Shown piece by piece: positions 1 through 33,249 of a DNA stretch of 64,000 nucleotides. Below the pieces are notes generated by a model. The model was not told the origin of the DNA and searched no databases. It was given only the letters and a program-made list of their open reading frames with translations. The DNA comes from Candidatus Magasanikiibacteriota bacterium (GTDB taxonomy: Bacteria; Patescibacteriota; Patescibacteriia; Magasanikbacterales; UBA922). Position 1 is the first letter of the stretch, and every line of letters begins with the position of its first letter. The stretch is taken from contig DOYU01000021.1 in the NCBI GenBank assembly GCA_003518365.1, positions 492 through 64,491 on the forward strand. Reading direction: 5' to 3'. Both the position numbers and the translations under genes were made by a program.

Positions 1-348
1 TCCGTCAACTGCACTTGTATCAATATCGTCATCACTTTGGGAAGCAACTGGTGGAGTCATGGCAGCAGCTGGTGCAGCACTGCGATATGCAGGGCCACGA
101 CCACCTTCTGGTTCATTGATCTTCAGATTAACGCGAGCGTTATTCTTTGCACCAACAATCTTCAAAAGTGTTCGAACTGATCGTGCGGTTTGACCTTGGC
201 GACCGATGACGTATGCCATGTCGCTAGGATCGACGTCGAGAGTGATGAGCACACCACGCTCATCAACGGTGCGAGTTGCCTTCACTTTGTCTGGGTTGTT
301 GACAATAGCTTTGACGACGTAATCCACAAAAGATTGATCTTGTTCCAT
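1..348 (-). CDS. KH-domain RNA-binding protein (YlqC/UPF0109-like); C-terminus runs off the window edge
   Basis: Not in the ORF track because it is open at the window edge. My reverse-strand translation from ATG 348-346 gives MEQDQSFVDYVVKAIVNNPDKVKATRTVDERGVLITLDVDPSDMAYVIGRQGQTARSVRTLLKIVGAKNNARVNLKI..., with the KH GxxG loop (IGRQGQTA). It sits directly downstream of rpsP, the conserved position. Confidence 0.8.
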   Translation of the reverse strand, partial: MEQDQSFVDYVVKAIVNNPDKVKATRTVDERGVLITLDVDPSDMAYVIGRQGQTARSVRTLLKIVGAKNNARVNLKINEPEGGRGPAYRSAAPAAAMTPPVASQSDDDIDTSAVDG

Positions 349-427
349 AGAATTCGTTTCAGAATGTAAATTTGTGAAGAACTGTCGACATTTCCCGAGC
401 ATATCGGGCCAGTTCTATCGTGAGAGT

Positions 428-456
428 AGTATATACAGATGGGTGGATTTTGTCAA
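428..456 (-). promoter_or_regulatory. Candidate sigma70-type promoter for the KH gene (TTGACA-17-TATACT)
   Basis: On the reverse strand, TTGACA (456-451), a 17-nt spacer, then TATACT (433-428). Located just after the rpsP terminator. Confidence 0.45.
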
Positions 457-462
457 TGTCAT

Positions 463-495
463 AAAAAAGACACACCTCACGGCATGTCTTTTTTA
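463..495 (-). terminator. Intrinsic terminator after rpsP (bidirectional shape)
   Basis: AAGACA...TGTCTT stem flanked by an A-run and a T-run, 14 nt downstream of the rpsP stop codon. Confidence 0.5.
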
Positions 496-4480: not shown

Positions 4481-5491
4481 ATGCCAAAACGGGTAGCCAC
4501 CCACATTTTCAAGGCCATCCAGGCAGCGAGAAAGATTCTCCTTGTGTCTCACAAAAATCCTGACGGAGACACGCTCGGATCTCTTGCTGCAATGATGCAA
4601 TACCTTCGCCATATCGAAAAACCACATGTGGCATTTTGTGCTACCGATATTTCTCCGTCACTGATGTTTTTGCCACACATCGACTATGTGACGCATACAC
4701 CGACCGTGTGGGATGATAAAGATATTGATCTCGTGATTGTATTTGATTCATCCAGTCCAGACTATGCTGGGGTAGAACACTTGCTCCCGATTATGAAAGA
4801 ACGTGGTGCACAGATCGCAAATATCGATCATCACAATACCAATCTTCAATATGGAGATTTCAACCTCGTCTTGCCAAAAGCAAGCTCAACGACAGAAATT
4901 GTCCATGACTTTTTTGCGCACAATAAAATAACCATCACACCAGCAATGGCAACATGCCTGCTCACTGGTATCATTACGGATACGGGGAATTTCACCAATG
5001 CAGCGACCACAAAACACTCGATGAATATTGCAAGCAAACTGATTGAAAAAGGCGGCAACATGGCACTCATTCAAGGATGGGTCCTGAAAGATAAGACTAT
5101 CAATGGACTCAAACTCTGGGGCACCGTACTCAGCAGAATGGCGCATCATGAAAAACTAGACATTGTCTACACGTATGTCACAAAAGAAGATATAGCAAAA
5201 CACGGCGTGACCGAACACGAAGTAGAAGGTATTGCAAACTTTATGAATAATATCAAAGATGGACGTGCTGGCATGATTCTAAAGGAAACAGAAGACGGCA
5301 ATTTCAAAGGGAGTTTTCGTACCACACATGATCATGTCGACGTCTCAGCTTTTGCAAAACTCTTTGGTGGCGGTGGACACAAAAAAGCAGCAGGCTTTTC
5401 TGTAGAAGGACCTATCGAACATGCACTCGAACATATCTTCGAAAAAATTCATCTTTTTGAGAATGGCGAACTTGCACTTGCTGAGGTGTAA
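4481..5491 (+). CDS. DHH/DHHA1 family phosphoesterase (NrnA-like oligoribonuclease / pAp phosphatase)
   Basis: Motifs HKNPDGDTLGS, DHH (NIDHHNTN) and the DHHA1 motif GGGGHKKAAGF. Confidence 0.85.
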   Translation: MPKRVATHIFKAIQAARKILLVSHKNPDGDTLGSLAAMMQYLRHIEKPHVAFCATDISPSLMFLPHIDYVTHTPTVWDDKDIDLVIVFDSSSPDYAGVEHLLPIMKERGAQIANIDHHNTNLQYGDFNLVLPKASSTTEIVHDFFAHNKITITPAMATCLLTGIITDTGNFTNAATTKHSMNIASKLIEKGGNMALIQGWVLKDKTINGLKLWGTVLSRMAHHEKLDIVYTYVTKEDIAKHGVTEHEVEGIANFMNNIKDGRAGMILKETEDGNFKGSFRTTHDHVDVSAFAKLFGGGGHKKAAGFSVEGPIEHALEHIFEKIHLFENGELALAEV

Positions 5492-5502
5492 CCATAAAAA
5501 CT

Positions 5503-5596
5503 CTCCCCCTAGTAGGGGGAGTTGGAGGGGGTTACCGCAGAAGCAAGAATAGTGGTAGTCCATAACCCCACCTTAATCCTCCCCTAGTAGGGGAGG
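5503..5596. repeat. Cluster of G/C-tract hairpins (CTCCCCCTAGTAGGGGGAG ... GGGGTTA/TAACCCC ... CCTCCCCTAGTAGGGGAGG)
   Basis: Two near-identical 19-nt perfect palindromes at 5503-5521 and 5578-5596 bracket a third inverted pair. Located in the 3' intergenic region after the DHH gene. Confidence 0.6.
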
Positions 5597-5610
5597 AAAT
5601 AATAAAAAAA

Positions 5611-20856: not shown

Positions 20857-20954
20857 AGCGAGTATGAATAGTATATCACAAAAATTATTCTGCTCACATG
20901 GCGAGTCTTGATTTTTTCGTGTATATTGAGTATTATAGCGAAGCAAAAAAAGAT

Positions 20955-20983
20955 GGGCTTGTCCTGCCTTTCGCGAAAGGCGG
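20955..20983 (+). repeat. Left copy of the direct repeat flanking the GIY-YIG gene (contains hairpin CCTGCCTTTCGCGAAAGGCGG)
   Basis: GGGCTTGTCCTGCCTTTCGCGAAAGGCGG. The near-identical copy at 21322-21351 differs by a G/T substitution at the first base and one extra C. It is followed by a second hairpin, TCCCTCCCTTC-acg-GAAGGGAGGGA (20989-21014). Confidence 0.7.
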
Positions 20984-21047
20984 AGCGCGTCCCTCCCTTC
21001 ACGAAGGGAGGGATATATCGTATAGTGTGTATCAAACAGGAGGGGCT

Positions 21048-21296
21048 ATGTTCTATACCTACCTATTGCAAAGTACAAAGGACAACAATTTTTATATTGG
21101 ATCAACGACGGATTTAAAAAGAAGATTCACCGAACATAACGATGGGAAAGTTTCTTCAACAAAATTTCGTCGTCCAATGAAATTGGTATATTACGAAGCC
21201 TATCCAGAAGAACATCTGGCACGAGTACGCGAACAAAAATTAAAAGATTTTGGTTCAGCATACACAGCACTATTAAAAAGATTAGGGTATAAATAA
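21048..21296 (+). CDS. Small GIY-YIG nuclease family protein (UPF0213/YhbQ-like)
   Basis: MFYTYLLQSTKDNNFYIGSTTDLKRRFTEHN carries the GIY..YIG and R..H motifs. ATG 21048 is preceded by AGGAGGGG. Confidence 0.85.
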   Translation: MFYTYLLQSTKDNNFYIGSTTDLKRRFTEHNDGKVSSTKFRRPMKLVYYEAYPEEHLARVREQKLKDFGSAYTALLKRLGYK

Positions 21297-21321
21297 TATA
21301 GATATATAGTACGTTGTATAG

Positions 21322-21351
21322 TGGCTTGTCCCTGCCTTTCGCGAAAGGCGG
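21322..21351 (+). repeat. Right copy of the direct repeat flanking the GIY-YIG gene
   Basis: TGGCTTGTCCCTGCCTTTCGCGAAAGGCGG. Confidence 0.7.
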
Positions 21352-21411
21352 GATAAATACTGTGGTCTTCAAAAGAAGATGAGGCAAACAAAAAAATGCA
21401 TATACATACAT

Positions 21412-21482
21412 GGGCGCATCGTATAGTGGTAGTACATTGGTCTCCAAAACCAATTGCGTGGGTTCGATTCCTACTGCGCCTG
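21412..21482 (+). tRNA. tRNA-Trp (anticodon CCA)
   Basis: Folded by hand into a cloverleaf: acceptor GGGCGCA/TGCGCCT, anticodon stem TTGGT/ACCAA, loop CTCCAAA, T-arm GTGGG-TTCGATT-CCTAC. CCA is not encoded. Confidence 0.9.
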
Positions 21483-21538
21483 CACTGGAAAACATACCAA
21501 AAATAAGGTATGTTTTTATAGATAATAGAATAAACGAT

Positions 21539-21973: not shown

Positions 21974-22063
21974 GTCAAATCGATTTAATCGTTATTCATA
22001 TCCAGCCCCAAGCTGAATTTTGAAGTATCGTTCCAAGTGCGTCTCACAACGCATGCTAACAAG

Positions 22064-22092
22064 ATAAGACTTACCCTAGTCTTATTTTTTTT
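22064..22092 (+). terminator. Intrinsic terminator
   Basis: ATAAGACT-taccct-AGTCTTAT followed by TTTTTTTT. Confidence 0.65.
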
Positions 22093-22176
22093 ACCAAAAA
22101 TTGGATAATGTTTCTATAATAATATACTATATATGATAATCAAGAATATATTATTCAAGATTAATAGATATAGATT

Positions 22177-22827
22177 ATGTATAGAAAAGGAGAAGTCATA
22201 GGTGTCGGGAATGACAAACGCATATATGCTGACGCAATAACTCCTGAGACAAGAGTTATTGCTGAATTTCGCAAGGAACAAACACCTGAAGAAATAAAGA
22301 GTGTGTACTATCTTGGGAACATAGCTCATATATTATTCCCTCAAAATGTACCCAAAGTATATGAAGCAGGGATGCATCCACAAGAACATACGAAAGTAGA
22401 AAGAAAAAAGGTGGATGTCAATCATAAAAATACGGCTGATCTCATGGTGACATACGAAGATTATTTCATGGGAGATGGTGAAACGGGACCTTCTTCAGAA
22501 GAAGATAGTGAGATGGATGTAGATATAGAAAAAAAAGAAACCGATCCAAGAGTAAAACAACTTTTAACAAAAGCGTCTTCTGTCGGATTATATTTTGATA
22601 CAGGCGGACAAAATTTTTCTTTTGACGATTTGGGTACTGTCCAATATCTTGAAGTGAATCCAGCATTTCATATAGAAAAAAACCACGTCCGTTTGCACTT
22701 CAACGAAAGCAAATTAAGAGATGCCATACAAGCATTAGAAAATGAAAAAGAGAAAAAAAAGGCTACACTATATTTCGAACGATTGATGTCTTTGATCCAA
22801 GTAGCACAAAATAATCTTATACAATAG
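22177..22827 (+). CDS. Hypothetical protein; possible atypical kinase-like fold (YrbL-like); weak
   Basis: Glycine-rich loop-like VIGVGNDKRIY near the N-terminus and LYFDTGGQNFSF resembling a kinase catalytic loop, read by eye only. Very AT-rich. Confidence 0.45.
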   Translation: MYRKGEVIGVGNDKRIYADAITPETRVIAEFRKEQTPEEIKSVYYLGNIAHILFPQNVPKVYEAGMHPQEHTKVERKKVDVNHKNTADLMVTYEDYFMGDGETGPSSEEDSEMDVDIEKKETDPRVKQLLTKASSVGLYFDTGGQNFSFDDLGTVQYLEVNPAFHIEKNHVRLHFNESKLRDAIQALENEKEKKKATLYFERLMSLIQVAQNNLIQ

Positions 22828-22913
22828 TTCCAACTTCCTCCTTCCTCTACGATCCCCTGCACCTCCTGCAGTAGCTCCTGCCGGCAGGCAGGTTAGCGAA
22901 GGCACGGCACTTG

Positions 22914-22948
22914 AAAAACAGAGTGAAAAACACTCTGTTTTTCTTTTT
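22914..22948 (+). terminator. Intrinsic terminator
   Basis: AAACAGAGTG-aaaaa-CACTCTGTTT followed by a T-rich run. Confidence 0.65.
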
Positions 22949-23002
22949 GACATGAAGGGAAGAACGGAGTATTGTACAAGTAAACATATACATTATATTG
23001 GT

Positions 23003-23212
23003 ATGGCTCATCAAAAAAATACAATCGGAAAAAACATCAAACGATTACGGCAAGAACAAAAAATTTCCCAAGATCGTCTTTCAAAACTTGCGGATCTTTC
23101 TTTGAATACTATTGTTACCGTTGAAAGTGGCGCAAACGAAAATCCTACTATTGATACGCTCACAAGGATTGCGAAAGCGTTTCAAGTTGGCGTGGATGAC
23201 CTCATAACATAA
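23003..23212 (+). CDS. XRE-family helix-turn-helix transcriptional regulator (69 aa)
   Basis: IGKNIKRLRQEQKISQDRLSKLADLSLNTIVTVESG is a canonical HTH_3. Start set at ATG 23003. Confidence 0.85.
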   Translation: MAHQKNTIGKNIKRLRQEQKISQDRLSKLADLSLNTIVTVESGANENPTIDTLTRIAKAFQVGVDDLIT

Positions 23213-23220
23213 CACCCACT

Positions 23221-24198
23221 ATGTCTAAACAAACACCTACCAATAATCTCGCTATCTACCAAGCTAAAAACGGCGCGATTGAATTTCGCGGTGATTTTGA
23301 GCAAGAGACGGTTTGGGGAAATTTAAATCAAATTGCCGATCTTTTTGGTCGCGACAAGTCCGTTGTTTCCCGCCATATAAAAAACATCTATAAAACAGGC
23401 GAATTAAACGAAACGGCAACTGTTGCAAAAATTGCAACAGTTCAAAAGGAAGGAAGGAGAGAAGTGATGCGTGAAATTGAGTACTTCAACCTTGATGTTA
23501 TTTTGTCCGTTGGGTACAGAGTAGATTCCAAGCAAGCCACGCAATTCCGCAAATGGTCAACGCAAGCGCTCAAGGCACACCTTGTAGACGGGTATACCAT
23601 CAACAAAAAACGCATCGGTAATAACTACGAACACTTTTTGCGTGCAGTGGCAGAAACAAAAGCACTCCTCCCTGTGGGCAACAAGGTTTCTACCGAGGAT
23701 ATACTTGAACTCGTGAACGCATTTGCTGCTACGTGGTTTTCGCTCGATGCATATGACAAAGACGCATTTCCTCAAAAAACAGCCTCAAAAAAGTCAGTTT
23801 CAGTTGACACTGTAAAGCTACTCAATGCGATTGGTGAGTTGAAGCAAGAACTGATAACCAAAAAGCAAGCAACAAACCTATTTGCACAAGAAAGGAAGAC
23901 GGGAACAGTAGAAGGAATCGTCGGAAATGTATTTCAGTCTGCCTTTGGCAAAGATGTATATCCAAGTATAGAAGAAAAGGCCGCACACATCCTCTACTTC
24001 ATGGTAAAAAATCATCCATTCACCGATGGCAACAAGCGCAGCGGAGCCTTTGCATTTGTTTGGTTTCTACGAAAAGCTGGTTTACTCCGACCAAGTCTTA
24101 CTCCAGAAGCGTTGACTGCCATTACCCTCCTCATTGCAGAGAGTAATCCAAAAGATAAAGACAAAATGGTGGGACTAGTGGTGATGTTAATCAAATAA
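23221..24198 (+). CDS. RhuM-family N-terminal domain fused to a Fic/Doc domain
   Basis: N-terminus: QIADLFGRDKSVVSRHIKNI ... YFNLDVILSVGYRVDSKQATQFRKW, the RhuM family pattern. C-terminus: HPFTDGNKRSGAF, which matches the Doc-type core HxFx[DN][GA]NKR. Confidence 0.8.
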   Translation: MSKQTPTNNLAIYQAKNGAIEFRGDFEQETVWGNLNQIADLFGRDKSVVSRHIKNIYKTGELNETATVAKIATVQKEGRREVMREIEYFNLDVILSVGYRVDSKQATQFRKWSTQALKAHLVDGYTINKKRIGNNYEHFLRAVAETKALLPVGNKVSTEDILELVNAFAATWFSLDAYDKDAFPQKTASKKSVSVDTVKLLNAIGELKQELITKKQATNLFAQERKTGTVEGIVGNVFQSAFGKDVYPSIEEKAAHILYFMVKNHPFTDGNKRSGAFAFVWFLRKAGLLRPSLTPEALTAITLLIAESNPKDKDKMVGLVVMLIK

Positions 24199-24200
24199 CT

Positions 24201-25322
24201 ATGGCAAATAAAAACCTTACAAAAGCAAAAAAGGCAAAAAATGATGAATTTTATACTCAATTTTCAGATATTCAAAAAGAAGTTGAGTCTTATCTTGAGT
24301 ATAACCCAGATACTTTTAAAGATAAGATAATTTACAGTAATTGTGACGACCCGTTCGAAAGTAATTTCTTTCGCTATTTTGTATTAAATTTTGATCGTTT
24401 AGGACTAAAGAGACTTATTTCAACGAGCTACAAACCCTCACCTGTTGCCAATACGCAACTGGGATTATTTGGCGATGACAAAACACTTGAAAAAGTAAAA
24501 GGCCGTCCAAAAGTAACCGCTAACAAATTCATCATCAACGAAGTTGGCGATATCGACGGCGACGGCTCTTTTACGCTAGAAGATATTGCCCAACAGCTTC
24601 GAGCGAATAAAAATAACGAATGGACTCCGCTTGAGGGCGATGGTGATTTTAGAAGTGCCGAATGTGTCGAGTTGCTCAAACAATCTGACATCGTAGTTAC
24701 TAATCCTCCATTTAGTTTATTCCGTGAATATATTACGCAACTTTTCGAACACAAAAAGCAATTTCTAATTATTGGTAGCATGAACTCAATTACTTACAAA
24801 GAAATCTTTGTGTTGATTAAAAATAATAAATTGTGGTTAGGTAATGGGTTTAATGCTGGCAATGCATATTTTTCAACTCCCAATGCGCGAAAAGATTTTG
24901 CTTCTGGTGTGTATGATGAAAAAACTGGTCTTGTAAAATTTCGGAATTGTCATTGGTTTACTAATTTAGATCATGGTCGTCGTCATCAGCCTCTTAATCT
25001 GATGACAACAAATGAAAACCTAAGATTTAATAAAAAAATGCAAGGCAAAACTACTTATGATCGTTATGACAATTATGACGCTATTGATGTACCATTTACA
25101 AAAGCTATCCCTTCTGACTACGAAGGAGTAATGGGTGTTCCTATAAGCTTTCTCGATAAGTACAATCCTAATCAGTTTGAGATATTGGGCTCTGACACAG
25201 ACATAAAAGAAGGTAAACTTCCACTTTTAATAATAAGTAAATGGAATGGAAAGCTAGACAGAGGTTATATACATGGAAAGAGAATCTTCAGTAGAATGTT
25301 TATTAAGCACAAAAAGAAATAA
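24201..25322 (+). CDS. N6-adenine DNA methyltransferase, EcoRI-methylase family
   Basis: N-terminal [16 protein letters not shown]...[18 protein letters not shown] and catalytic motif [12 protein letters not shown]. It begins 2 nt after the previous stop codon. Confidence 0.8.
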
Positions 25323-25323
25323 T

Positions 25324-26487
25324 ATGAAAACAACCTTAAAAAATGATATCACCGTTAAAGAAGTTTGCGACGGCTTTGAATACAACGAATTTGAAGGAAA
25401 AGGTTTGTTTGGTCTCTCTGGCAAACTAACTATTCAGCCAGAGTATCAGCGTAATTATATTTATGCTGACGGCAAACGTGACGTTGCTGTAATTGACTCA
25501 ATTTTAAAGGGTTATCCTATCGGTTTGATCTATTTCAATCAGGCTGGTAAAGACGAGTTTGAAGTATTAGATGGTCAACAGCGCATCACGAGTATAGGTC
25601 GTTTTGTTACTGGCAAATTTGCTGTTAAAGATAAAAACGGTCACGAGCAATACTACAGCGGTATGTCTGAGAGTCAGCGTGAGCAAATTATGAAGACTAA
25701 GTTGTTGGTGTATGTGTGCGAAGGTGACGAGCCTGAGATCAAAGATTGGTTCAAGACTATTAACATTGCTGGAGTGCCATTAACTGAACAAGAGATTCTT
25801 AACGCGGTATATTCTGGGCCATTCGTTACTCGAGCTCGTGAAGAGTTTAGTAATAGTCAAAATACCAACATCCAGAAATGGAGTGCGTACATCGCAGGTG
25901 ATATCAAGCGTCAGGCATACTTGGAACGAGCTCTAGATTGGGTTTCTGATGGATCAATCGATAGTTATATGAGCAAACACCGCAATGACAAAAATATTAC
26001 TGAACTAAAAAAACATTTTGATACTATCATTGACTGGGTCTCAACTATCTTTACTGACGTTGAGAGCGATATGAAAGGCCTTGAGTGGAACAGGATTTAT
26101 GAGACATATCACAAGAAGAAATACAATCCGACTACCATCTCTGCTTCTGTTCAGAAGCTCTATGCTGATGGTTTCGTAAAAAGTCGCAAAGGCATTTTTG
26201 AATATGTTTTAGGCGGAGAAGTTGAAACTAAACTACTTGAAATACGAGTATTTGAGGACTCAACAAAACGTTCAGTTTACGAAGCTCAAACTGCTATTGC
26301 AAAGAAAAAAGGTGTTTCAAACTGTCCACATTGTGCTATTGGGCATGATGCCAATAAAGAAAAAATTTGGACTTTAAGCGATATGGATGCTGATCATGTG
26401 GCTGCTTGGAGTAAAGGTGGAAAAACGGAAGCAAAAAACTGTGAGATGTTGTGTAAAACGCATAATCGTGCCAAAGGTAATCGGTAA
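25324..26487 (+). CDS. DUF262 (ParB/GmrS-like NTPase) fused to an HNH endonuclease
   Basis: N-terminus: IQPEYQRNY ... [10 protein letters not shown], the DUF262 hallmark. C-terminus: CPHCAIG...[12 protein letters not shown]...[15 protein letters not shown], the HNH motif. Start set at ATG 25324, 1 nt after the methyltransferase stop codon. Confidence 0.8.
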
Positions 26488-26493
26488 AATATT

Positions 26494-27987
26494 ATGCACC
26501 TCACAAAAACCGACTATCTCGAATATACCTTTTGCAAAAAGAACCTTTGGCTCAAAAAACATAAGCCAGAGCTTTTTGAAGATGTAGAATTGTCGGAATT
26601 TGAAAAAAAAATTATTGAGGAAGGGAATTTGGCTGATGAGGCTGCAAGAAATTTATTTCCTGATGGAGAATTGATCGGTATCGTCGGAGTAAATGCTATA
26701 CCTGTTACAAAAAAGATACTGGAGAAAAACCCACCAGTATTATTTCAAGGTGCATTTTCATTCAATGACTTTTTTGTTCAAGCGGATATTTTACGTTACA
26801 ACGACATTTTAAAGGGTTGGGAACTTTACGAAGTAAAAGCAACAAATGATGTAAAACGAGAAATCCCTCATCACCATATCAACGACCTTGCGTTTCAAAA
26901 AATTGTAATTGAACAAAATGGGATACACATTATAAAAGCAGGCGTTATTCACCTTAACGGCGAATATAGACAACGAGGCAAAGTAAACTATAACGAACTG
27001 TTCATCATTGCCGAGCTTACTGATGAAGTACTAGAAGCGGAAGAACTTGTACGTGGGCAGATGCGTGATATTCACACATATATGGACATGGCAGAAGAAA
27101 AAAATTGTGAATGTTTGTATCGAGGTAGAAATGCACAATGTACAACGTTCGCTTACTCTAATCCTGAAGTGCCTGAATACTCTGTTCACGATATCAATAG
27201 AATTGGCGGAAGCAAAAAACTGTTTTTTGACTGGATAGATAGAGGGATCTACCGGCTCGAAGATATAGATAACCCAGAAAATCTTACAGGATCAAAAAAG
27301 GCACAATATACTGCGTACATAACAGGTAAGCCTCTCATAGACAAAGAAGCAATACAAAAAGAACTTGGTGAATTGGTTTTTCCTCTCCAATTTTTTGATT
27401 ACGAAGGATATTCTAGTGCTATCCCCAGCTTTAACGGCTTCGGTGCGTATGAACAAGTGCCTTTTCAATATTCACTACATACGCTCCATGAAGACGGAAC
27501 GCTTGAACACCGAGAATATCTCATCACAGAGCCAGAGAATGATTTGACTTTGCCATTGGTAGAAAGAATGAAAGAAGACTTTGATGATGTTGGTACTGTC
27601 ATATCTTGGTACAAATCATACGAATCACAACGAAACGACAAACTAGCAGAACTTCATCCAAATCATGCAGACTTTCTTATTGGCCTCAATGACAGAATGT
27701 TTGACCTCATGACAATGTTTTCCAAAAATTATTATGTGGATGCACGGTTCAAAGGGAGTGCAAGCATAAAAAATGTTCTGCCGGTCATTGTACCGGAATT
27801 AACGTACAAAGTACTTGGTATTCAAAAAGGAGATCAAGCAGTAGAACGTTGGGAAAAAATGATATTTGCAGATATTCATCCAGATGAAAAGAAAGAAATA
27901 AAAAAAGATTTGCTTGAGTATTGCAAATTGGATACTTTGGCGATGGTGAGGATTTGGGAGTTTCTAATGAAAATAAAAAATGTATGA
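26494..27987 (+). CDS. DUF2779 family protein (N-terminal PD-(D/E)xK/Cas4-like nuclease, C-terminal DUF2779)
   Basis: MHLTKTDYLEYTFCKKNLWLKKHKPE...FPDG, ELYEVKA (ExK), and FFDYEGYSSAIPSFNGFGAYEQVPFQYSLH, the DUF2779 hallmark. Confidence 0.75.
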   Translation: MHLTKTDYLEYTFCKKNLWLKKHKPELFEDVELSEFEKKIIEEGNLADEAARNLFPDGELIGIVGVNAIPVTKKILEKNPPVLFQGAFSFNDFFVQADILRYNDILKGWELYEVKATNDVKREIPHHHINDLAFQKIVIEQNGIHIIKAGVIHLNGEYRQRGKVNYNELFIIAELTDEVLEAEELVRGQMRDIHTYMDMAEEKNCECLYRGRNAQCTTFAYSNPEVPEYSVHDINRIGGSKKLFFDWIDRGIYRLEDIDNPENLTGSKKAQYTAYITGKPLIDKEAIQKELGELVFPLQFFDYEGYSSAIPSFNGFGAYEQVPFQYSLHTLHEDGTLEHREYLITEPENDLTLPLVERMKEDFDDVGTVISWYKSYESQRNDKLAELHPNHADFLIGLNDRMFDLMTMFSKNYYVDARFKGSASIKNVLPVIVPELTYKVLGIQKGDQAVERWEKMIFADIHPDEKKEIKKDLLEYCKLDTLAMVRIWEFLMKIKNV

Positions 27988-29219
27988 ATATGCACAGCCC
28001 TCTTTCTTCAATTCAACAACTACAATCAATATTAAGTAGTCCTTCGAAAAAAATCGGATTCCTTTTTGGGGCTGGAATTTCAATGGAAAAAAAAGATAAG
28101 AGTGATTTGGTGGTAGGAACTGATGACAAAAAAGATGAGAACGGTAATGTAATAAAAGAAGGAATGACAAGTCTCGCAATTAAAAATTTATCAGAGGAAC
28201 AAAAAAAAGCTGTAGATTTAATAAAGAATGAGGTTGAAACAGAAAATAAAAAATTTAACATCGAAAGTCTCTTATCAAAAATTTCTGAAAAAGAAAGAGC
28301 TGTTGGCGATCAAGAGCTTTGTGGTTTAACAAAAGAAAAATTATTAAATTTGAGAAAGGATATACAGGATAAAATAAGAGATTTGGTTTCCGTACATAGG
28401 GTGGATGATAAAGAAATTGATATTGAGGCATTAAATCACAGCACATTTGCTCAATGGATTAGTAATGCTGATAGAGAATTCTCAGTAGAAATTTTTACAA
28501 CAAATTACGATTATCTACTAGAACTAGCACTTGAAAAACAAGGAATTCCCTATTTCGATGGTTTTGTGGGTAGTTATGAAGCATTTTTTTGCCCTGAATG
28601 GATTGAAGATGACACGCCTGTCAAAAATTGGGTAAAGCTATGGAAATTACATGGTTCACTTGGTTGGGCACAGAATAGTAAAAAAGAAATAATTAGAACA
28701 TCTGGTAATACCGGTGCGGCGATGATATACCCTTCATTTTTGAAATATGACCATTCCAAAAAACAGCCATACTTGAGCTATATGGATAGATTGTCCGATT
28801 TTTTAAAGCAAGAAGATTCTGTCTTATTTGTTTGTGGTTATTCATTTGGAGATGAACATATAAATGAAATAATTTTGACAGCACTTACGCACTCTCGCTC
28901 ATCACATGTATTTGTGTTGAAAAATGGAGAAATGGAAAAATCTAGCCATCTTTCAAAAGAAATTGCACAAAAAAATTCTAGAATTTCAGTTTATGCAAAA
29001 CGTACCTGTATTATTGGAGGTAAATTTGGAGAATGGAAGCTCGATAGAGAACCAGACAGAAATGAATCCTACAACATATTAGATTATGCTTTTGATGAAG
29101 ACGCTACACCTGATGGAGTACCATGGACAGGAAGAGGTGATTTTCGTCTTGGAGACTTTAAAAAATTTACGGAGTTTTTAGAGCTTTTCTACCATAATTC
29201 GAGATATATCAATAAATGA
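27984..29219 (+). CDS. SIR2-like (SIR2_2) NAD-binding defence protein
   Basis: IGFLFGAGIS, FTTNYDYLLE, KLHGS and CGYSFGDEHIN. The start ATG 27984 overlaps the DUF2779 stop codon (ATGA). Confidence 0.8.
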   Translation: MNMHSPLSSIQQLQSILSSPSKKIGFLFGAGISMEKKDKSDLVVGTDDKKDENGNVIKEGMTSLAIKNLSEEQKKAVDLIKNEVETENKKFNIESLLSKISEKERAVGDQELCGLTKEKLLNLRKDIQDKIRDLVSVHRVDDKEIDIEALNHSTFAQWISNADREFSVEIFTTNYDYLLELALEKQGIPYFDGFVGSYEAFFCPEWIEDDTPVKNWVKLWKLHGSLGWAQNSKKEIIRTSGNTGAAMIYPSFLKYDHSKKQPYLSYMDRLSDFLKQEDSVLFVCGYSFGDEHINEIILTALTHSRSSHVFVLKNGEMEKSSHLSKEIAQKNSRISVYAKRTCIIGGKFGEWKLDREPDRNESYNILDYAFDEDATPDGVPWTGRGDFRLGDFKKFTEFLELFYHNSRYINK

Positions 29220-29220
29220 C

Positions 29221-30999
29221 ATGAGAAATAAAGAGACATTTATAGGTAAAGTGAGAAGTGTCACAGGTAGTACGCTTGCTATTGAGTTACACGAAGATAT
29301 TAGATCAACGTTACCTATTATTGATGGGATATTATATAGAATTGGACAAATTGGTTCTTTTATAAGAATTCCTTTTGGTTATGTTGATTTATATGGAGTA
29401 ATTACACAAGCTGGATCAGACGCTATACCAGAAAAATTAGCGGAGCAAGAGGGTTTGAAAGGATCTCGCTGGATTAAGGCTACTCTTATTGGAGAAAGGG
29501 TCGGTAATAGATTTGAAAGAGGGGTGTTGCAATTTCCTATTGCTGATGACGAAGTTCATTTGGTCACGAAGGATGATTTGGAATTGATATATGGTGGAAT
29601 TGATGAATCAAAGTCAATAGTAGTTGGACAGGTCAGTGCCTCTGAAAATCTGTCAGCAAGAATAGATATAGACAGATTAATTAATAGACATTGCGCCATA
29701 CTTGGCTCTACAGGAAGTGGAAAATCAAATACAGTTTCTGTAATACTAGAAGCAATTGCTTCTAGACATCATGATGATGAAAATATAAAAAGTACGAGAA
29801 TTCTTTTGGTCGACCCTCATGGTGAGTATGGCGATATTTTAAAAAATTATAGTCAAATATTTAAGTTAGGAGCAGACTTGTCAAAAGGAGAAAAAGAACT
29901 AGTTGTTCCATATTGGGCTTTACCTTTTCAAGAATTTATAAAAAGTTTTCCAGGTAATCTAACTGAAAAGCAGGAAGAGTACATACGTGAAGAAATTCTA
30001 CAAAGAAAGATTAAGGCTTCTAAAAAATTAAATCCTATTCCACAAGAGGAGGCAATTACAGCTGATAGCCCTATCCCTTTCAGTATTAAACAACTATGGT
30101 TTGACCTTATTGATATAGAGCAAAAAACTTTTAATAACAAGGAGTTAACCGAAGTCGCACTCGAATCACTAGGCGATCCTGAGGCACTTAAGCCTAACAA
30201 ATACTCCATAGCGTCAACAAATAATACAGCCCCTTTCAGTAATAACAGGGTTGCGCAGGGTATTTCAAGTTTTTTAAACTTAATGCGGAATAGAATTTTA
30301 GATCAAAGATTTAAGTTTTTATTCAAACTAGACACGCTCTCTCCTGGTATTGACGGAACTATTTCAAGTGATTTAGACAGTCTCATTGAAAGTTGGATTG
30401 GGACAGAGAAACCAATAACTATTTTAGACCTATCGAGTATACCCTCTGAAATCATGGGTTCAATTTCTGGTTCTTTGCTTTCAATAATTTATGAATTTCT
30501 ATATTGGGGACAGAATGAAGATGTGGGAGGTCGCCAAACACCTATTCTGTTTGTACTAGAAGAGGCACATAATTATCTAAAGTCAGGCGAGAATTCTATT
30601 GCCTCAAGAACTGTACAAAAAATTGCAAAAGAGGGTAGAAAATATGGTTCAGGTTTACTACTCGTAACCCAACGACCTTCTGAACTGGATGATACTGTTT
30701 TGAGTCAATGTGGTTCAGTTATCGCGTTGAGAATGACAAATTCTAGCGATAGAGGCCACGTAAAGAGTGCTGTCGAGGATTCCCTAAACGAGTTAGTTGA
30801 TTTGCTTCCGAGCCTAAGAACAGGTGAAGGTTTAATTATGGGTGAATGTGTAAAATTACCTATGCGAACTAAATTTTCTAAAACTAGGGAATCTAAAAGT
30901 ACAGACCCACTTGTTTCTAAGCAGTGGAAAACAACTCTTCCAGAATCCTCTAACTATAATAAAGTTTTAGAAAATTGGAGAAATAATAAATTTTCTTAA
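29221..30999 (+). CDS. HerA-like (DUF87) FtsK/HerA-clade ATPase
   Basis: Walker A ILGSTGSGKSNT, Walker B ILFVLEEAHNYL, GRKYGSGLLLVTQRPSEL. It begins 1 nt after the SIR2 stop codon. Confidence 0.85.
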   Translation: MRNKETFIGKVRSVTGSTLAIELHEDIRSTLPIIDGILYRIGQIGSFIRIPFGYVDLYGVITQAGSDAIPEKLAEQEGLKGSRWIKATLIGERVGNRFERGVLQFPIADDEVHLVTKDDLELIYGGIDESKSIVVGQVSASENLSARIDIDRLINRHCAILGSTGSGKSNTVSVILEAIASRHHDDENIKSTRILLVDPHGEYGDILKNYSQIFKLGADLSKGEKELVVPYWALPFQEFIKSFPGNLTEKQEEYIREEILQRKIKASKKLNPIPQEEAITADSPIPFSIKQLWFDLIDIEQKTFNNKELTEVALESLGDPEALKPNKYSIASTNNTAPFSNNRVAQGISSFLNLMRNRILDQRFKFLFKLDTLSPGIDGTISSDLDSLIESWIGTEKPITILDLSSIPSEIMGSISGSLLSIIYEFLYWGQNEDVGGRQTPILFVLEEAHNYLKSGENSIASRTVQKIAKEGRKYGSGLLLVTQRPSELDDTVLSQCGSVIALRMTNSSDRGHVKSAVEDSLNELVDLLPSLRTGEGLIMGECVKLPMRTKFSKTRESKSTDPLVSKQWKTTLPESSNYNKVLENWRNNKFS

Positions 31000-31010
31000 T
31001 TATTAAACAT

Positions 31011-31223
31011 ATGGAAAGAAAACCAGTACAATCATCAAATCTTGCTGCTATTGGATATGATCCTTTGACAGAAACTTTGGAGGTGGAATTCACAGATGGG
31101 TCTGTCTATGAGTATAAGAACGTCTCTCAATTTATATACGATGAGCTGATGAATGCTTCGTCTCATGGTTCTTATTTTAATAGAGAAATCAGTAAAAGTT
31201 TTCCGTATGAGAAAATAGGTTAA
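31011..31223 (+). CDS. KTSC domain protein (70 aa)
   Basis: VQSSNLAAIGYDPLTETLEVEFTDGSVYEYKNV matches the KTSC pattern (SSN...GYD...L.V.F..G..Y.Y..V). Confidence 0.75.
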   Translation: MERKPVQSSNLAAIGYDPLTETLEVEFTDGSVYEYKNVSQFIYDELMNASSHGSYFNREISKSFPYEKIG

Positions 31224-31401
31224 ATATGAAATAGGATTGTTTGAGGGAGGGGCAATTCTCCTTTTTGATTCCCCTCTTCCCCCTCCCCCAAACCAGAAAT
31301 AGAAGTTTTGAATGAATAGAATTAATTGGATACAATTGGACGTAGTTAATATATCCAAAAACCAATAATCTGTTATACTTTCATAGAAGTATCATTCTCA
31401 C

Positions 31402-33249
31402 ATGAAACATTCAACATTCCACTATCATCTATCACGTATGACCCTCCTCTTTCTCATACTGATCCCCATCCTCATCATTATTGTGGGGATGTATGTTTTC
31501 TTTTGGAAAAACGCTGTACCAACAGGAGAACAATTTGTGACCGTATGCTCGGATGAAGATGTGTCGTGCCACCCGACGAATCTCCCGTATCAAGATGCAA
31601 CACTTCCGACTCAGGAACGAGTTGTTGATTTGCTCGGCAGGATGACTCTGGCAGAAAAAATAGGACAAATGGCACTTGTTGAAAAAAATAGTATTAAAAA
31701 CAACAATGACATTGCAACGTATGGACTTGGTGCCATTATGAGTGGTGGTGGAGGAAAACCCACTGACAATAGTCCTACAGGTTGGAAAGACATGATACAG
31801 TCATTTCAAACAAAGAGCCAAACAACACGTCTTCAAATTCCCCTCTTGTATGGCGTGGATGCAAATCATGGACATGGCAATGTACCAGGAGCAACAATTT
31901 TTCCACACGCTATCGGACTTGGCGCGACAAACAACGCGGAACTCGTAAAAAATATTGCAAAAGCAACCGCACAAGAAGCAGAAGCGACTGGCGTTAATTG
32001 GATATTTTCTCCAAATCTTGACGTGACAAACGATGTCAGATGGGGACGAACGTATGAGACGTTTGGTTCAAACACAGAAACCATCGCTAAACTTGGACAA
32101 GCATCTATAGAAGGTATGAACACGGTGCCGACGATGCTTGCGGGCGCAAAACACTTTATCGGGAATGGTGCGACCGAGTGGGGATCATCTGAAAACAAAA
32201 ATTTTTTTATCGACCAAGGCAATGCTTCTGTATCTGAAGAAGAATTGCGAAAGACGCATCTGATACCCTTTATCTCCGCCATTGATGCTGGAGCCAAATC
32301 AATTATGATTGGTCTCAATCAATGGAACAATGAAAAAATTATATTTCACACATATCTTATACAGGATGTATTAAAAGGTAAGCTTGGATTTGACGGATTT
32401 GTCTTCTCAGACTGGTATGGCGTATACGAGGGGGAATCAAATAAATCAACAGCACTCATCAGTGCCATCAATGCTGGCGTAGATATGGTGATGCTTCCCT
32501 ATGATTACACACAATTCTCTCGTATCATGCACCGCGCCGTACAAAATGGCGATATTTCAGAAGCACGGATTGATGATGCTGTGACGAGAATTCTCACGGT
32601 AAAATTTGATAAAGGACTTTTTGATACAACACCAACAAACGTCTCAGACCTCGACATCGTCGGATCAAAAGAACACAAAGATCTTGCACGAATTGCAGTA
32701 CAACAATCTCTGGTGTTGTTAAAAAATAAGAACGTCCTTCCCCTCTCTAAAAAAGTGAATTCCATATTTATAGCAGGATCGAGCGCAGATAATATTGGAA
32801 GACAATCTGGTGGGTGGACAGTAGAGTGGTCTGGTATTGATGGAAATTGGATCCCCGGAACGACGATATTGGAAGGAATAAAAAACACCGTATCCCCTAC
32901 CACGAATATTCAATATGACATGCAGGGATCATTTCCAACACAAACAGAAAAAGCAGATGTTGGTATTGCGATTGTAGGAGAAATGCCGTATGCAGAAGGC
33001 TGGGGAGACAATGCACACCCATCACTTTCTGAAGAAGATATCAATACTATTGAAGCATTGAAAGCACAGAGTAAAAAAATTGTAGTGATTATTGTTTCTG
33101 GTCGTCCGCTTGATATTGCCCCATATATTGACGAGTGGGATGCCGTTGTGGCCGTATGGCTTCCTGGTTCTGAAGGAATGGGAATTGCAGATGTTCTGTT
33201 TGGAGATGTTTCATTCACAGGGAAACTTCCTATTGAGTGGACATGGTAA
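31402..33249 (+). CDS. Glycoside hydrolase family 3 (beta-glucosidase/BglX-like), N-terminal TM anchor
   Basis: LAEKIGQM, GVDANHGHGN, the GFDGFVFSDW nucleophile motif, and a C-terminal alpha/beta sandwich domain. Confidence 0.88.
   Translation: MKHSTFHYHLSRMTLLFLILIPILIIIVGMYVFFWKNAVPTGEQFVTVCSDEDVSCHPTNLPYQDATLPTQERVVDLLGRMTLAEKIGQMALVEKNSIKNNNDIATYGLGAIMSGGGGKPTDNSPTGWKDMIQSFQTKSQTTRLQIPLLYGVDANHGHGNVPGATIFPHAIGLGATNNAELVKNIAKATAQEAEATGVNWIFSPNLDVTNDVRWGRTYETFGSNTETIAKLGQASIEGMNTVPTMLAGAKHFIGNGATEWGSSENKNFFIDQGNASVSEEELRKTHLIPFISAIDAGAKSIMIGLNQWNNEKIIFHTYLIQDVLKGKLGFDGFVFSDWYGVYEGESNKSTALISAINAGVDMVMLPYDYTQFSRIMHRAVQNGDISEARIDDAVTRILTVKFDKGLFDTTPTNVSDLDIVGSKEHKDLARIAVQQSLVLLKNKNVLPLSKKVNSIFIAGSSADNIGRQSGGWTVEWSGIDGNWIPGTTILEGIKNTVSPTTNIQYDMQGSFPTQTEKADVGIAIVGEMPYAEGWGDNAHPSLSEEDINTIEALKAQSKKIVVIIVSGRPLDIAPYIDEWDAVVAVWLPGSEGMGIADVLFGDVSFTGKLPIEWTW

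Follow-up and report, generated by a model that had tools for sequence, protein, structure and literature searches.

Why should a gene for a very small GIY-YIG nuclease lie between two nearly identical hairpin repeats, directly ahead of a tRNA gene? The question is raised by a locus in a 64,000-nucleotide stretch of a Candidatus Magasanikiibacteriota genome (contig DOYU01000021.1 of assembly GCA_003518365.1), referred to here as the window, for which an initial annotation had proposed a small mobile or homing-type cassette with hairpin repeats as its ends, inserted just upstream of tRNA-Trp. On our best reading, the cassette consists of a single-domain GIY-YIG nuclease and a putative cognate GC-rich hairpin, which have colonised the tRNA-Trp gene itself. 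Two near-identical repeats of 29 and 30 nt do bracket an 82-aa GIY-YIG gene that has a strong ribosome-binding site (RBS), with the right copy 60 nt from tRNA-Trp, and all of these coordinates were confirmed. The notion of a small nuclease cassette tied to hairpins stands as well. The repeats, however, are not its ends but modules within degenerate tRNA-Trp copies, and "just upstream of tRNA-Trp" understates the arrangement, since the cassette lies inside the tRNA transcription unit, after the promoter and between disrupted and intact tRNA copies. Positions below are those of the window unless a locus is named, and L-numbers (e.g. L011) denote loci of relatives from Patescibacteria metagenomes or other public sequences.

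The GIY-YIG gene and its hairpins among copies of tRNA-Trp

The degenerate tRNA copies of the window could be read because the layout in relatives, where tRNA 5' copies are broken by hairpins, gave the key. The order is promoter, psi1a with hairpin hp1L, psi1b with hairpin hp2, RBS and nuclease gene, psi2 with hairpin hp1R and, finally, intact tRNA-Trp (Table 1). A TTGATT...TATA(A/G)T element is found upstream of the tRNA or pseudo-tRNA in L011, L067, L068, L069 and L070, and in relatives whose site is empty the equivalent promoter directly drives tRNA-Trp. The GGG of psi1a occurs about 18 nt after the -10 box, where the 5' end of a tRNA is expected and with a spacing that matches the empty sites of relatives; judging from its sequence, hp1L/psi1a can be read as the probable remnant of a first disrupted tRNA-Trp copy. 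The second copy, psi1b, is interrupted at about tRNA position 7/8 by hp2 (TCCCTCCCTTCACGAAGGGAGGGA, 20990-21013), a third, related hairpin that the initial annotation had not listed. It matches tRNA-Trp at 11 of 11 positions over 21017-21027 and, once the hairpin is excised, aligns to the tRNA with z=4.4, a value reached by 4 of 1000 shuffles. The signal is stronger for psi2, in which hp1R (21325-21353) interrupts the D-loop after GTATAGTGG and the copy resumes as TAAATACTGTGGTCTTCAAAA (tRNA positions 19-38): the region 21297-21411, hairpin excised, aligns to tRNA positions 10-38 with z=7.5, and no shuffle out of 1000 reached that score. The pseudo-tRNA::hairpin units in L014 and L016 are homologues of this copy, which folds into an extended D-stem plus hairpin (z=-3.7). 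The short similar strings previously noticed between each repeat and the gene (21014-21033 and 21303-21324) are real, and correspond to the decayed D-arms of these tRNA-Trp copies. The tRNA-Trp that follows is the functional copy, the only one found in the window by blastn, and its sequence is identical in L069. The consensus scan called no terminator on the plus strand between promoter and tRNA-Trp; the terminator-like hairpin beyond the tRNA is a possible, tentatively assigned end of the transcription unit.

Table 1 Features of the tRNA-Trp locus, in window coordinates
Feature	Position	Strand	Basis or detail
Sigma-70-like promoter, TTGATT-17 nt-TATTAT	20908-20936	+	Consensus scan
Left repeat, GGGCTTGTCCTGCCTTTCGCGAAAGGCGG	20955-20983	+	Read from sequence
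hp1L (the left repeat), in psi1a	20955-20983	+	GGG fused to hairpin CTTGTCC-TGCCTTTCGCGAAAGGCGG
psi1b, second degenerate tRNA-Trp 5' copy	20982-21033	+	GGAGCGCG (acceptor-like), hp2, ATCGTATAGTGTGTATC (tRNA positions 7-24)
RBS GGAGGGG (21039-21045) and GIY-YIG gene (21048-21296; ATG 21048, stop 21294-21296)	21039-21296	+	82 aa
psi2, degenerate tRNA-Trp copy with hp1R	21304-21374	+	Hairpin-excised alignment
Right repeat, TGGCTTGTCCCTGCCTTTCGCGAAAGGCGG	21322-21351	+	Read from sequence
Intact tRNA-Trp (CCA)	21412-21483	+	ARAGORN; Rfam 63.8 bits
Terminator-like hairpin, AACATACC-N8-GGTATGTT and T run	21491-21519	+	Read from sequence; not called by consensus scan

Two further interpretations of these stretches were rejected. 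The pseudo-tRNAs do not qualify as functional tRNA-like RNAs, as they form no cloverleaf, their folds are dominated by the GC hairpin and ARAGORN makes no call; and a deleted second GIY gene at 21352-21411, which a repeat had suggested, was dismissed because this stretch aligns to the tRNA anticodon arm. As a separate observation, the tRNA-Trp D-arm GTATAATGG or GTATAGTGG (the 21322-21327 region of the window and the D-loops of relatives) is a near-perfect -10 hexamer, and the promoter scan calls TTCACG-17-TATAGT at 20998-21026, inside psi1b; the D-arms of pseudo-tRNAs might supply promoter elements for the nuclease gene.

An identical 21-mer is present in both repeats (20963-20983 = 21331-21351), and the difference between them is an insertion or deletion of one C. 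That hp1L and hp1R are identical at 29 of 30 positions despite decay of their tRNA-derived surroundings suggests either that the hairpin sequence is under selection or that it was copied recently. Their palindromic core, GCCTTTCGCGAAAGGC, occurs twice in the 64 kb, both times at this locus, where 0.03 occurrences are expected, and the window holds no third copy of the 29-mer at up to three mismatches. The related hp2, 71% like the repeat, forms a 10-bp stem without mismatches. In the sequence, none of the window hairpins is followed by a T tract. Across 10 Trp-family hairpins the 10-bp stem is paired in 95% of cells and compensatory double changes occur in 4 of its 10 pairs, a covariation score reached by none of 500 shuffles; perfect GC hairpins are also enriched 7-fold within 200 nt of GIY genes. 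This region is identical in two independent public assemblies of Candidatus Magasanikbacteria-like genomes (GCA_003488405.1 and GCA_003536515.1) and is therefore no assembly artefact. In the latter assembly (L002, about 5270-5290), an NN scaffold gap and an 18-nt duplication fall exactly at the right hairpin repeat, which suggests that this repeat confounds assembly.

Is the hairpin simply a widespread intergenic element? An exact scan for the hp1 20-mer through one genome per species (185,579 species; the source genome was not among the matches returned) gave just 8 matches. Five of these fall in high-GC genomes and are likely due to chance, three are solitary hairpins in Patescibacteria contigs, and none of the 8 has a GIY gene or a tRNA nearby. 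Such rarity, together with the gain and loss described below, runs counter to the view, raised in the initial annotation as what would undo its proposal, that the repeat is a generic hairpin found broadly and without presence/absence polymorphism. Elsewhere in the window, in a convergent intergenic region at 5503-5597, a string equal to tRNA-Trp positions 12-22, ATAGTGGTAGT, lies between two similar hairpins, CTCCCCCTAGTAGGGGGAG and TCCTCCCCTAGTAGGGGAGGA; the hairpin pair could be another relic of hairpin plus tRNA fragment, or chance.

The encoded protein is clearly of the GIY-YIG superfamily, matching Pfam PF01541 over residues 1-67 (E=9.5e-17; 61.5 bits against a cut-off of 22.6), and residues Y5, Y16, G18, R26, H30, E50 and E62 are invariant across 22 homologues. 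The domain spans nearly all of the 82 residues, making this a single-domain protein without an extra DNA-binding domain. An AlphaFold2 model reached a pLDDT of 97.4, and the best Foldseek matches of this predicted structure were UPF0213 (BH0048) and the Slx1 nuclease domain (TM 0.72, rmsd 1.6 Å); the match to TIGR01453, the group I intron endonuclease family, lies far under its cut-off (23.8 versus 56 bits). Among the GIY genes of the Trp clade, non-synonymous divergence (pN) is about 0.2 with synonymous divergence (pS) saturated. This pattern of substitutions indicates that the gene is functional and under strong purifying selection, and that the cassettes are long-lived.

Recurrence at eight tRNA species, gain and loss

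In relatives the same layout is found undecayed: a tRNA promoter is followed by a tRNA copy broken by a GC hairpin, then by the GIY-YIG gene and an intact tRNA, with 4-57 nt between stop codon and intact tRNA and an overlap in one locus. The closest metagenomic GIY-YIG homologues (65-80% identity) all lie immediately upstream of an intact, same-strand tRNA-Trp. Where these closest relatives have a single cassette, its stop codon is 2-12 nt from tRNA-Trp and a hairpin is present only upstream of the gene, which speaks against repeats as both ends of the cassette. Upstream of each gene is the 5' part of the same tRNA, beginning at tRNA position 1 and interrupted by the GC hairpin in one of two ways: either the hairpin lies in the D-loop after ...GTATAATGG and tRNA sequence then resumes, or it stands after the anticodon loop ...CTCCAA in place of approximately positions 37-53, with remnants of the T-loop and 3' acceptor behind it. 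Eight tRNA species carry the layout, namely Trp, Gln, Asn, Phe, Glu, Cys, Thr and Pro.

The upstream copies were assessed in 12 related tRNA-type loci by searching the 220 nt ahead of the GIY gene for ungapped segments, with 300 shuffles as control. A colinear ungapped copy of the downstream tRNA, starting from tRNA position 1 and broken by a GC hairpin, was present in 10 of the 12 (18/18, 35/36, 35/35 and similar). The best upstream segments scored 29-70 in 9 of the 12 loci, compared with 20-23 for the best of 300 shuffles; the segments of L017, L026, L034 and L060 scored only 22-24, at or just above the shuffle maximum. Overall, a same-strand tRNA ends at least 15 of 50 homologue loci, lying within about 60 nt of the GIY stop in 13 of them and following a second, tandem GIY cassette in L016 and L018. 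The first of the two tandem GIY genes before tRNA-Trp in L016 (2631-2660) is stopped at codon 10 (MFYTYLLQS, then stop) and is a decaying cassette, a pseudogene, and the second is intact. Hairpin-tagged tRNA copies also occur without a gene, as psi2 in the window, as a unit downstream of tRNA-Asn in L043 and as an array after tRNA-Trp in L071. This array (330-470, minus strand) comprises at least three tandem 53-nt units, ACAATGTACAGTCTCCAA-CCCGGCCGGGGCCGGG-CGATCCTCTCCACGCCTGC, which start downstream of the intact tRNA-Trp and run to the contig end; the units are truncated tRNA copies with the hairpin in place of positions 37-53. As to carriers, viral contigs gave six weak matches and no viral vector for GIY genes, and a plasmid search for homologues gave five weak matches, one of them an Azospirillum gene discussed below.

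The initial annotation had proposed looking for empty sites upstream of tRNA-Trp in relatives, and such sites exist. Orthologous sites were defined by the gene for a DUF6938 protein upstream of the cassette, a well-conserved, divergent neighbour (identities below are to the window protein). The site is occupied, as in the window, in L011 (78%) and L070 (73%); in L071 (75%) tRNA-Trp is likewise occupied, with a PEGA-domain gene between the tRNA and the DUF6938 gene. L067 (79%), by contrast, has a clean empty site made up of promoter, 20 nt, tRNA-Trp and terminator, and in L068 (77%) tRNA-Trp is empty, with two other genes between it and the DUF6938 gene. L069 (76%) has neither gene nor hairpin and retains a relic of tRNA positions 34-58 (4 of 1000 shuffles). 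The empty L068 and the occupied L071 come from one metagenome (JGI 3300010234) and have identical tRNA-Trp sequences. Further DUF6938 orthologues, in L066, L079 and L080, are in rearranged surroundings with no adjacent tRNA-Trp and are uninformative. In L070, where tRNA-Trp is GIY-occupied, an IS200/IS605-type Y1 transposase gene (PF01797; 4541-4981) lies just downstream of the DUF6938 gene and is probably unrelated to the cassette.

Targets have changed as well. The GIY proteins at tRNA-Gln (L026, L040), tRNA-Asn (L043) and tRNA-Phe (L034) form one group with 62-71% identity, and the tRNA-Pro protein L018a is 64% identical to the Trp protein of the window, when the Trp protein of L071 is only 51% identical to it. 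The L026 pseudo-copy has the acceptor arm TGCCAGG, which is not the TGGGAGA of the local tRNA-Gln but is similar to the arm in L040. The initial annotation had thought further GIY-YIG copies with the same flanking repeat worth seeking; the same GIY lineage recurs at different tRNA species, and none of the exact hp1 matches has a GIY gene nearby. Because orthologous sites are occupied or empty, targets have been switched and the L026 pseudo-copy bears an acceptor arm unlike that of its local tRNA, these comparisons argue for repeated colonisation of tRNA genes and not for one ancient event.

Relation to Ssn nucleases and other known systems

A single-domain GIY-YIG gene flanked by hairpins is of an already known kind. 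The Ssn family comprises single-domain GIY-YIG proteins of about 94 aa that act as site-specific single-strand DNA nucleases (Chenal et al. 2025, Nat Commun, PMC11893778); their binding site in single-stranded DNA is a hairpin repeat (NTS/SRM), immediately upstream of which they cut, and in Neisseria SsnA modulates natural transformation (PMC11893778). Repeats flank 71% of the genes, 42% having them on both sides, an arrangement that the authors liken to an insertion sequence, and family membership was assigned by CDD cd10448 or by similarity to N. meningitidis SsnA at E<1e-10; neither tRNA nor Patescibacteria is mentioned anywhere in the paper (PMC11893778). What the window shares with these systems (PMC11893778) is a GIY-YIG protein in the size range of about 80-100 aa that consists of this one domain and lacks a DNA-binding domain, and hairpin repeats of 20-50 nt with an oriented 5' flank on both sides of the gene (hp1L and hp2 upstream, hp1R downstream). 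It differs in that its hairpins are not dispersed through the 64 kb but embedded in tRNA copies, with the gene inside a tRNA transcription unit. A bridge between the two is offered by Azospirillum lipoferum 4B, whose plasmid AZO_p3 (L078, 1379-1887) carries a 97-aa GIY-YIG gene between sufB and sufC with an inverted pair of canonical SRM hairpins, CGTCATCCCCGCGAAGGCGGGGATCCAG, on each side (four in all); hhalign relates the window family to this SRM-flanked homologue with a probability of 98.4% (E=6.8e-15). Because the window hairpins miss the published SRM motif, we regard the cassette, from sequence comparison, as Ssn-like and not as a proven member of the family.

Other selfish elements share single traits with the cassette. 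Free-standing GIY-YIG homing endonucleases include SegB, whose gene lies in a tRNA gene cluster of phage T4 (PMC2330249) and thus likewise among tRNA genes; homing genes of this type also show presence/absence polymorphism among relatives, comparable to the occupied sites of the window, L011 and L070, the empty sites of L067 and L068 and the relic in L069, and they spread by break-induced copying through flanking homology, which is the model that we propose for the cassette. Homing endonucleases, however, have a separate DNA-binding domain and exceed 200 aa, whereas the window protein is a bare 82-aa catalytic domain; homing normally leaves no duplicated part of the target, and the cassettes described here are found in cellular Patescibacteria and not in phages. 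IS200/IS605 elements and REP/RAYT systems similarly combine a small enzyme gene with short palindromes that are read as folded single-stranded DNA, and solo hairpins occur, but they rely on HUH Y1 transposases with covalent intermediates and have no tRNA-copy architecture. The window element encodes no HUH Y1 transposase, its GIY-YIG gene being its only open reading frame (ORF), and a GIY-YIG nuclease only hydrolyses DNA, so that joining must rely on host repair.

Islands and prophages of tyrosine integrases also insert in a tRNA gene, keep the tRNA through a replacement part and leave a partial copy at the other end. Those, however, carry the tRNA 3' part and an integrase, whereas here it is the tRNA 5' part or the whole tRNA that is duplicated, and the element is about 0.4 kb long with one 82-aa nuclease and no recombinase. 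A relic of an integrase attachment (att) site or of a tRNA-targeting island was rejected for the window, as there is no adjacent recombinase, the duplication covers tRNA positions 7-38 and the window yielded no repeat of the tRNA 3' end. Group I introns in Patescibacteria tRNA genes (PMC13011429) are selfish tRNA-gene insertions in the same phylum, including in the anticodon loop; they differ in that the tRNA of the window is restored by duplication and not by splicing, and the endonucleases reported in that study are HNH, LAGLIDADG and PD-(D/E)XK, not GIY-YIG (PMC13011429). An intron within tRNA-Trp was rejected too, since Rfam at gathering thresholds finds only three tRNAs in the window and a complete, uninterrupted tRNA-Trp follows the cassette. 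In the full-text literature that was searched, GIY-YIG cassettes lying within tRNA genes are nowhere described. We accordingly take this nesting, in which an intact tRNA copy and copies disrupted by hairpins enclose the gene and which recurs in Patescibacteria at eight tRNA species, to be new.

A model of spread, its rivals and its implications

How could such a cassette spread? We lean, if not by far, towards a selfish, Ssn-like cassette: it would invade tRNA genes, ensure survival of the tRNA by duplicating or replacing its 5' part, and ride the tRNA promoter. A more ambitious proposal, which we put forward tentatively and with more doubt than conviction, is that these loci represent an undescribed class of mobile elements of about 0.4 kb in Patescibacteria, each an Ssn-type GIY-YIG nuclease plus hairpin, with a "self-healing" insertion into tRNA genes: the insert would end in a fresh tRNA 5' part, or the whole tRNA would be duplicated, sparing an essential single-copy tRNA, the tRNA promoter would be captured, and the displaced, hairpin-tagged copy would serve as recognition site and homology arm. 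Under the preferred reading of an invading cassette, the nuclease gene would be transcribed from the tRNA promoter, and RNase P would free the tRNA from the 3' end of the transcript. By analogy with Ssn enzymes, the nuclease would bind its own hairpin when the DNA is single-stranded, and its cut, a few nucleotides to the 5' side, would fall in the tRNA-derived flank; the resulting nicks or breaks might stimulate recombination via tRNA homology, whereby the segment made of hairpin, gene and fresh tRNA 5' part would be copied into a tRNA gene. The old 5' part would stay upstream as a hairpin-tagged pseudo-copy and a functional tRNA would be rebuilt, and insertion would for that reason be non-lethal and repeatable, giving tandem cassettes. 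Tandem arrays are what the copying model predicts, and they are observed. The copy in the window is probably no longer mobile, since its tRNA-derived arms have decayed, and its gene and hp1 pair are still maintained.

Several points weigh against this account of spread. We infer the spread itself, including nuclease activity, cleavage and transposition. A rebuilt intact tRNA would remain a target of the nuclease unless it were protected, and the model offers no protection; moreover, hairpin positions in the pseudo-copies vary (after tRNA positions 7/8, 10/11, 18 and 36) and hence are not what a single fixed cleavage site predicts. The SRM search motif, HGTCWYN(0-2)YYVSBRHN(0-5)WNVSBRGN(0-2)RNCYNB, matches nothing in the window (0, shuffle mean 0.2) or in any of the Patescibacteria loci, and the same script finds 4 around the Azospirillum homologue, and the 64 kb hold 3 hairpins of the family against hundreds of dispersed repeats in Neisseria. 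Saturated synonymous sites among the Trp-clade genes mean that the cassettes are old. Their distribution may be largely compatible with vertical inheritance and occasional loss, and the gene could have been lost from the empty sites, as seems to have happened in L069, which keeps a tRNA relic but no gene.

A rival explanation is a domesticated host nuclease, a resident and immobile Ssn-type GIY-YIG/hairpin pair that might, for example, limit single-stranded DNA recombination or uptake in competence-dependent bacteria, that merely uses a strong tRNA promoter, and whose pseudo-copies are by-products of old local duplication. SsnA indeed modulates natural transformation in Neisseria (PMC11893778), purifying selection with saturated synonymous divergence implies long-term retention, the closest homologues all sit at the same tRNA-Trp, and in the window the gene and the hp1 copies were kept as the tRNA-derived arms decayed. 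Such a resident function is nevertheless hard to reconcile with the absence of the gene from this site in the similarly diverged L067 and L068, which makes it dispensable, with the recurrence of the design at eight tRNA species and the span of one GIY lineage across three of them, or with tandem and pseudogenised copies, and three hairpins in 64 kb bring no genome-wide target set into view. We consider a host nuclease unlikely.

Less probable again, in our view, is that the hairpins act at the RNA level only, controlling translation, stability or processing of the nuclease mRNA from the 5' untranslated region or between cistrons, with no DNA recognition. In 15 of 16 free-standing endonuclease genes a hairpin was reported ahead of the start codon, and such hairpins can sequester the RBS (PMC2677866). 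In the Trp family the distance from the hairpin to the ATG downstream is always 38-51 nt, GGCUUGUCC is paired with the RBS region when the window leader is folded at minimum free energy, and the covariation fits an RNA structure equally well. Yet the RBS is not covered by the hairpin itself, hairpin-tagged tRNA copies exist without any gene (psi2, the L043 unit and the L071 tandem units), the same hairpin sequence occupies different positions of the tRNA copy in L026 and L040, and the Azospirillum homologue is flanked on both sides by SRM hairpins, which are known DNA targets. Ordinary features, such as generic terminators or intergenic palindromes beside a small gene, or att-site relics of an integrase-borne island, are the least probable explanation and largely refuted. 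Intergenic DNA does often contain GC hairpins, an island of low GC content that carries defence and restriction genes starts just downstream of tRNA-Trp, and the exact hp1 20-mer is solitary in three other Patescibacteria contigs; however, no T tract follows the hairpins and no plus-strand terminator is called from promoter to tRNA, the core is confined to this locus, hairpins lie inside tRNA pseudo-copies in the 14 related tRNA-type loci examined, and what has been duplicated belongs to the 5' part of the tRNA and not to the 3' part typical of integrases, with no integrase adjacent and no 3' repeat at the far end of the island.

The description of Ssn nucleases in 2025 left their role outside Neisseria open and the idea of a mobile "hairpin-gene-hairpin" unit untried. 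The tRNA-nested loci bear on both, for in them a gene of this kind has been gained and lost, has formed tandem copies and has changed targets, and the tRNA is kept functional by duplication. If the more ambitious proposal of an undescribed class of mobile elements is true, the Ssn family gains a biological role as a parasite of tRNA genes, and a bare 82-aa nuclease domain suffices for site-specific mobility. The preferred model of an invading cassette, should it hold, would reveal a strategy for insertion into essential single-copy genes in very small genomes and explain the tRNA fragments and hairpin-bearing pseudo-tRNAs beside these Patescibacteria tRNA genes. In practical terms, the loci would provide natural pairs of a tiny nuclease and a hairpin/tRNA-flank target for single-strand DNA tools, with hp1 and its tRNA-derived flank as a defined biochemical substrate.

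A second class of homologues lies away from tRNAs, intergenically or inside ORFs, and has terminal inverted repeats, CCCCGTTAGATA...TATCTAACGGGG (L020-L025, L027-L031, L033 and L035-L037; also L030, L039 and L041). In this class the right arm encodes the protein C-terminus, and in L025 the GIY ORF reads through into the host ORF; in L030, L039 and L041 the GIY gene lies within an integrase-like gene and has a different inverted repeat. Within the window, the region directly downstream of tRNA-Trp (22000-32000) has a low GC content of 0.34-0.39, compared with about 0.45. A blastn search of the window found no tRNA 3'-end repeat at its far end. Its genes encode an XRE-type helix-turn-helix (HTH) protein, a RhuM/Fic protein, an EcoRI-like methylase and a GmrSD-like protein, and the region resembles a restriction or defence island adjoining the tRNA.

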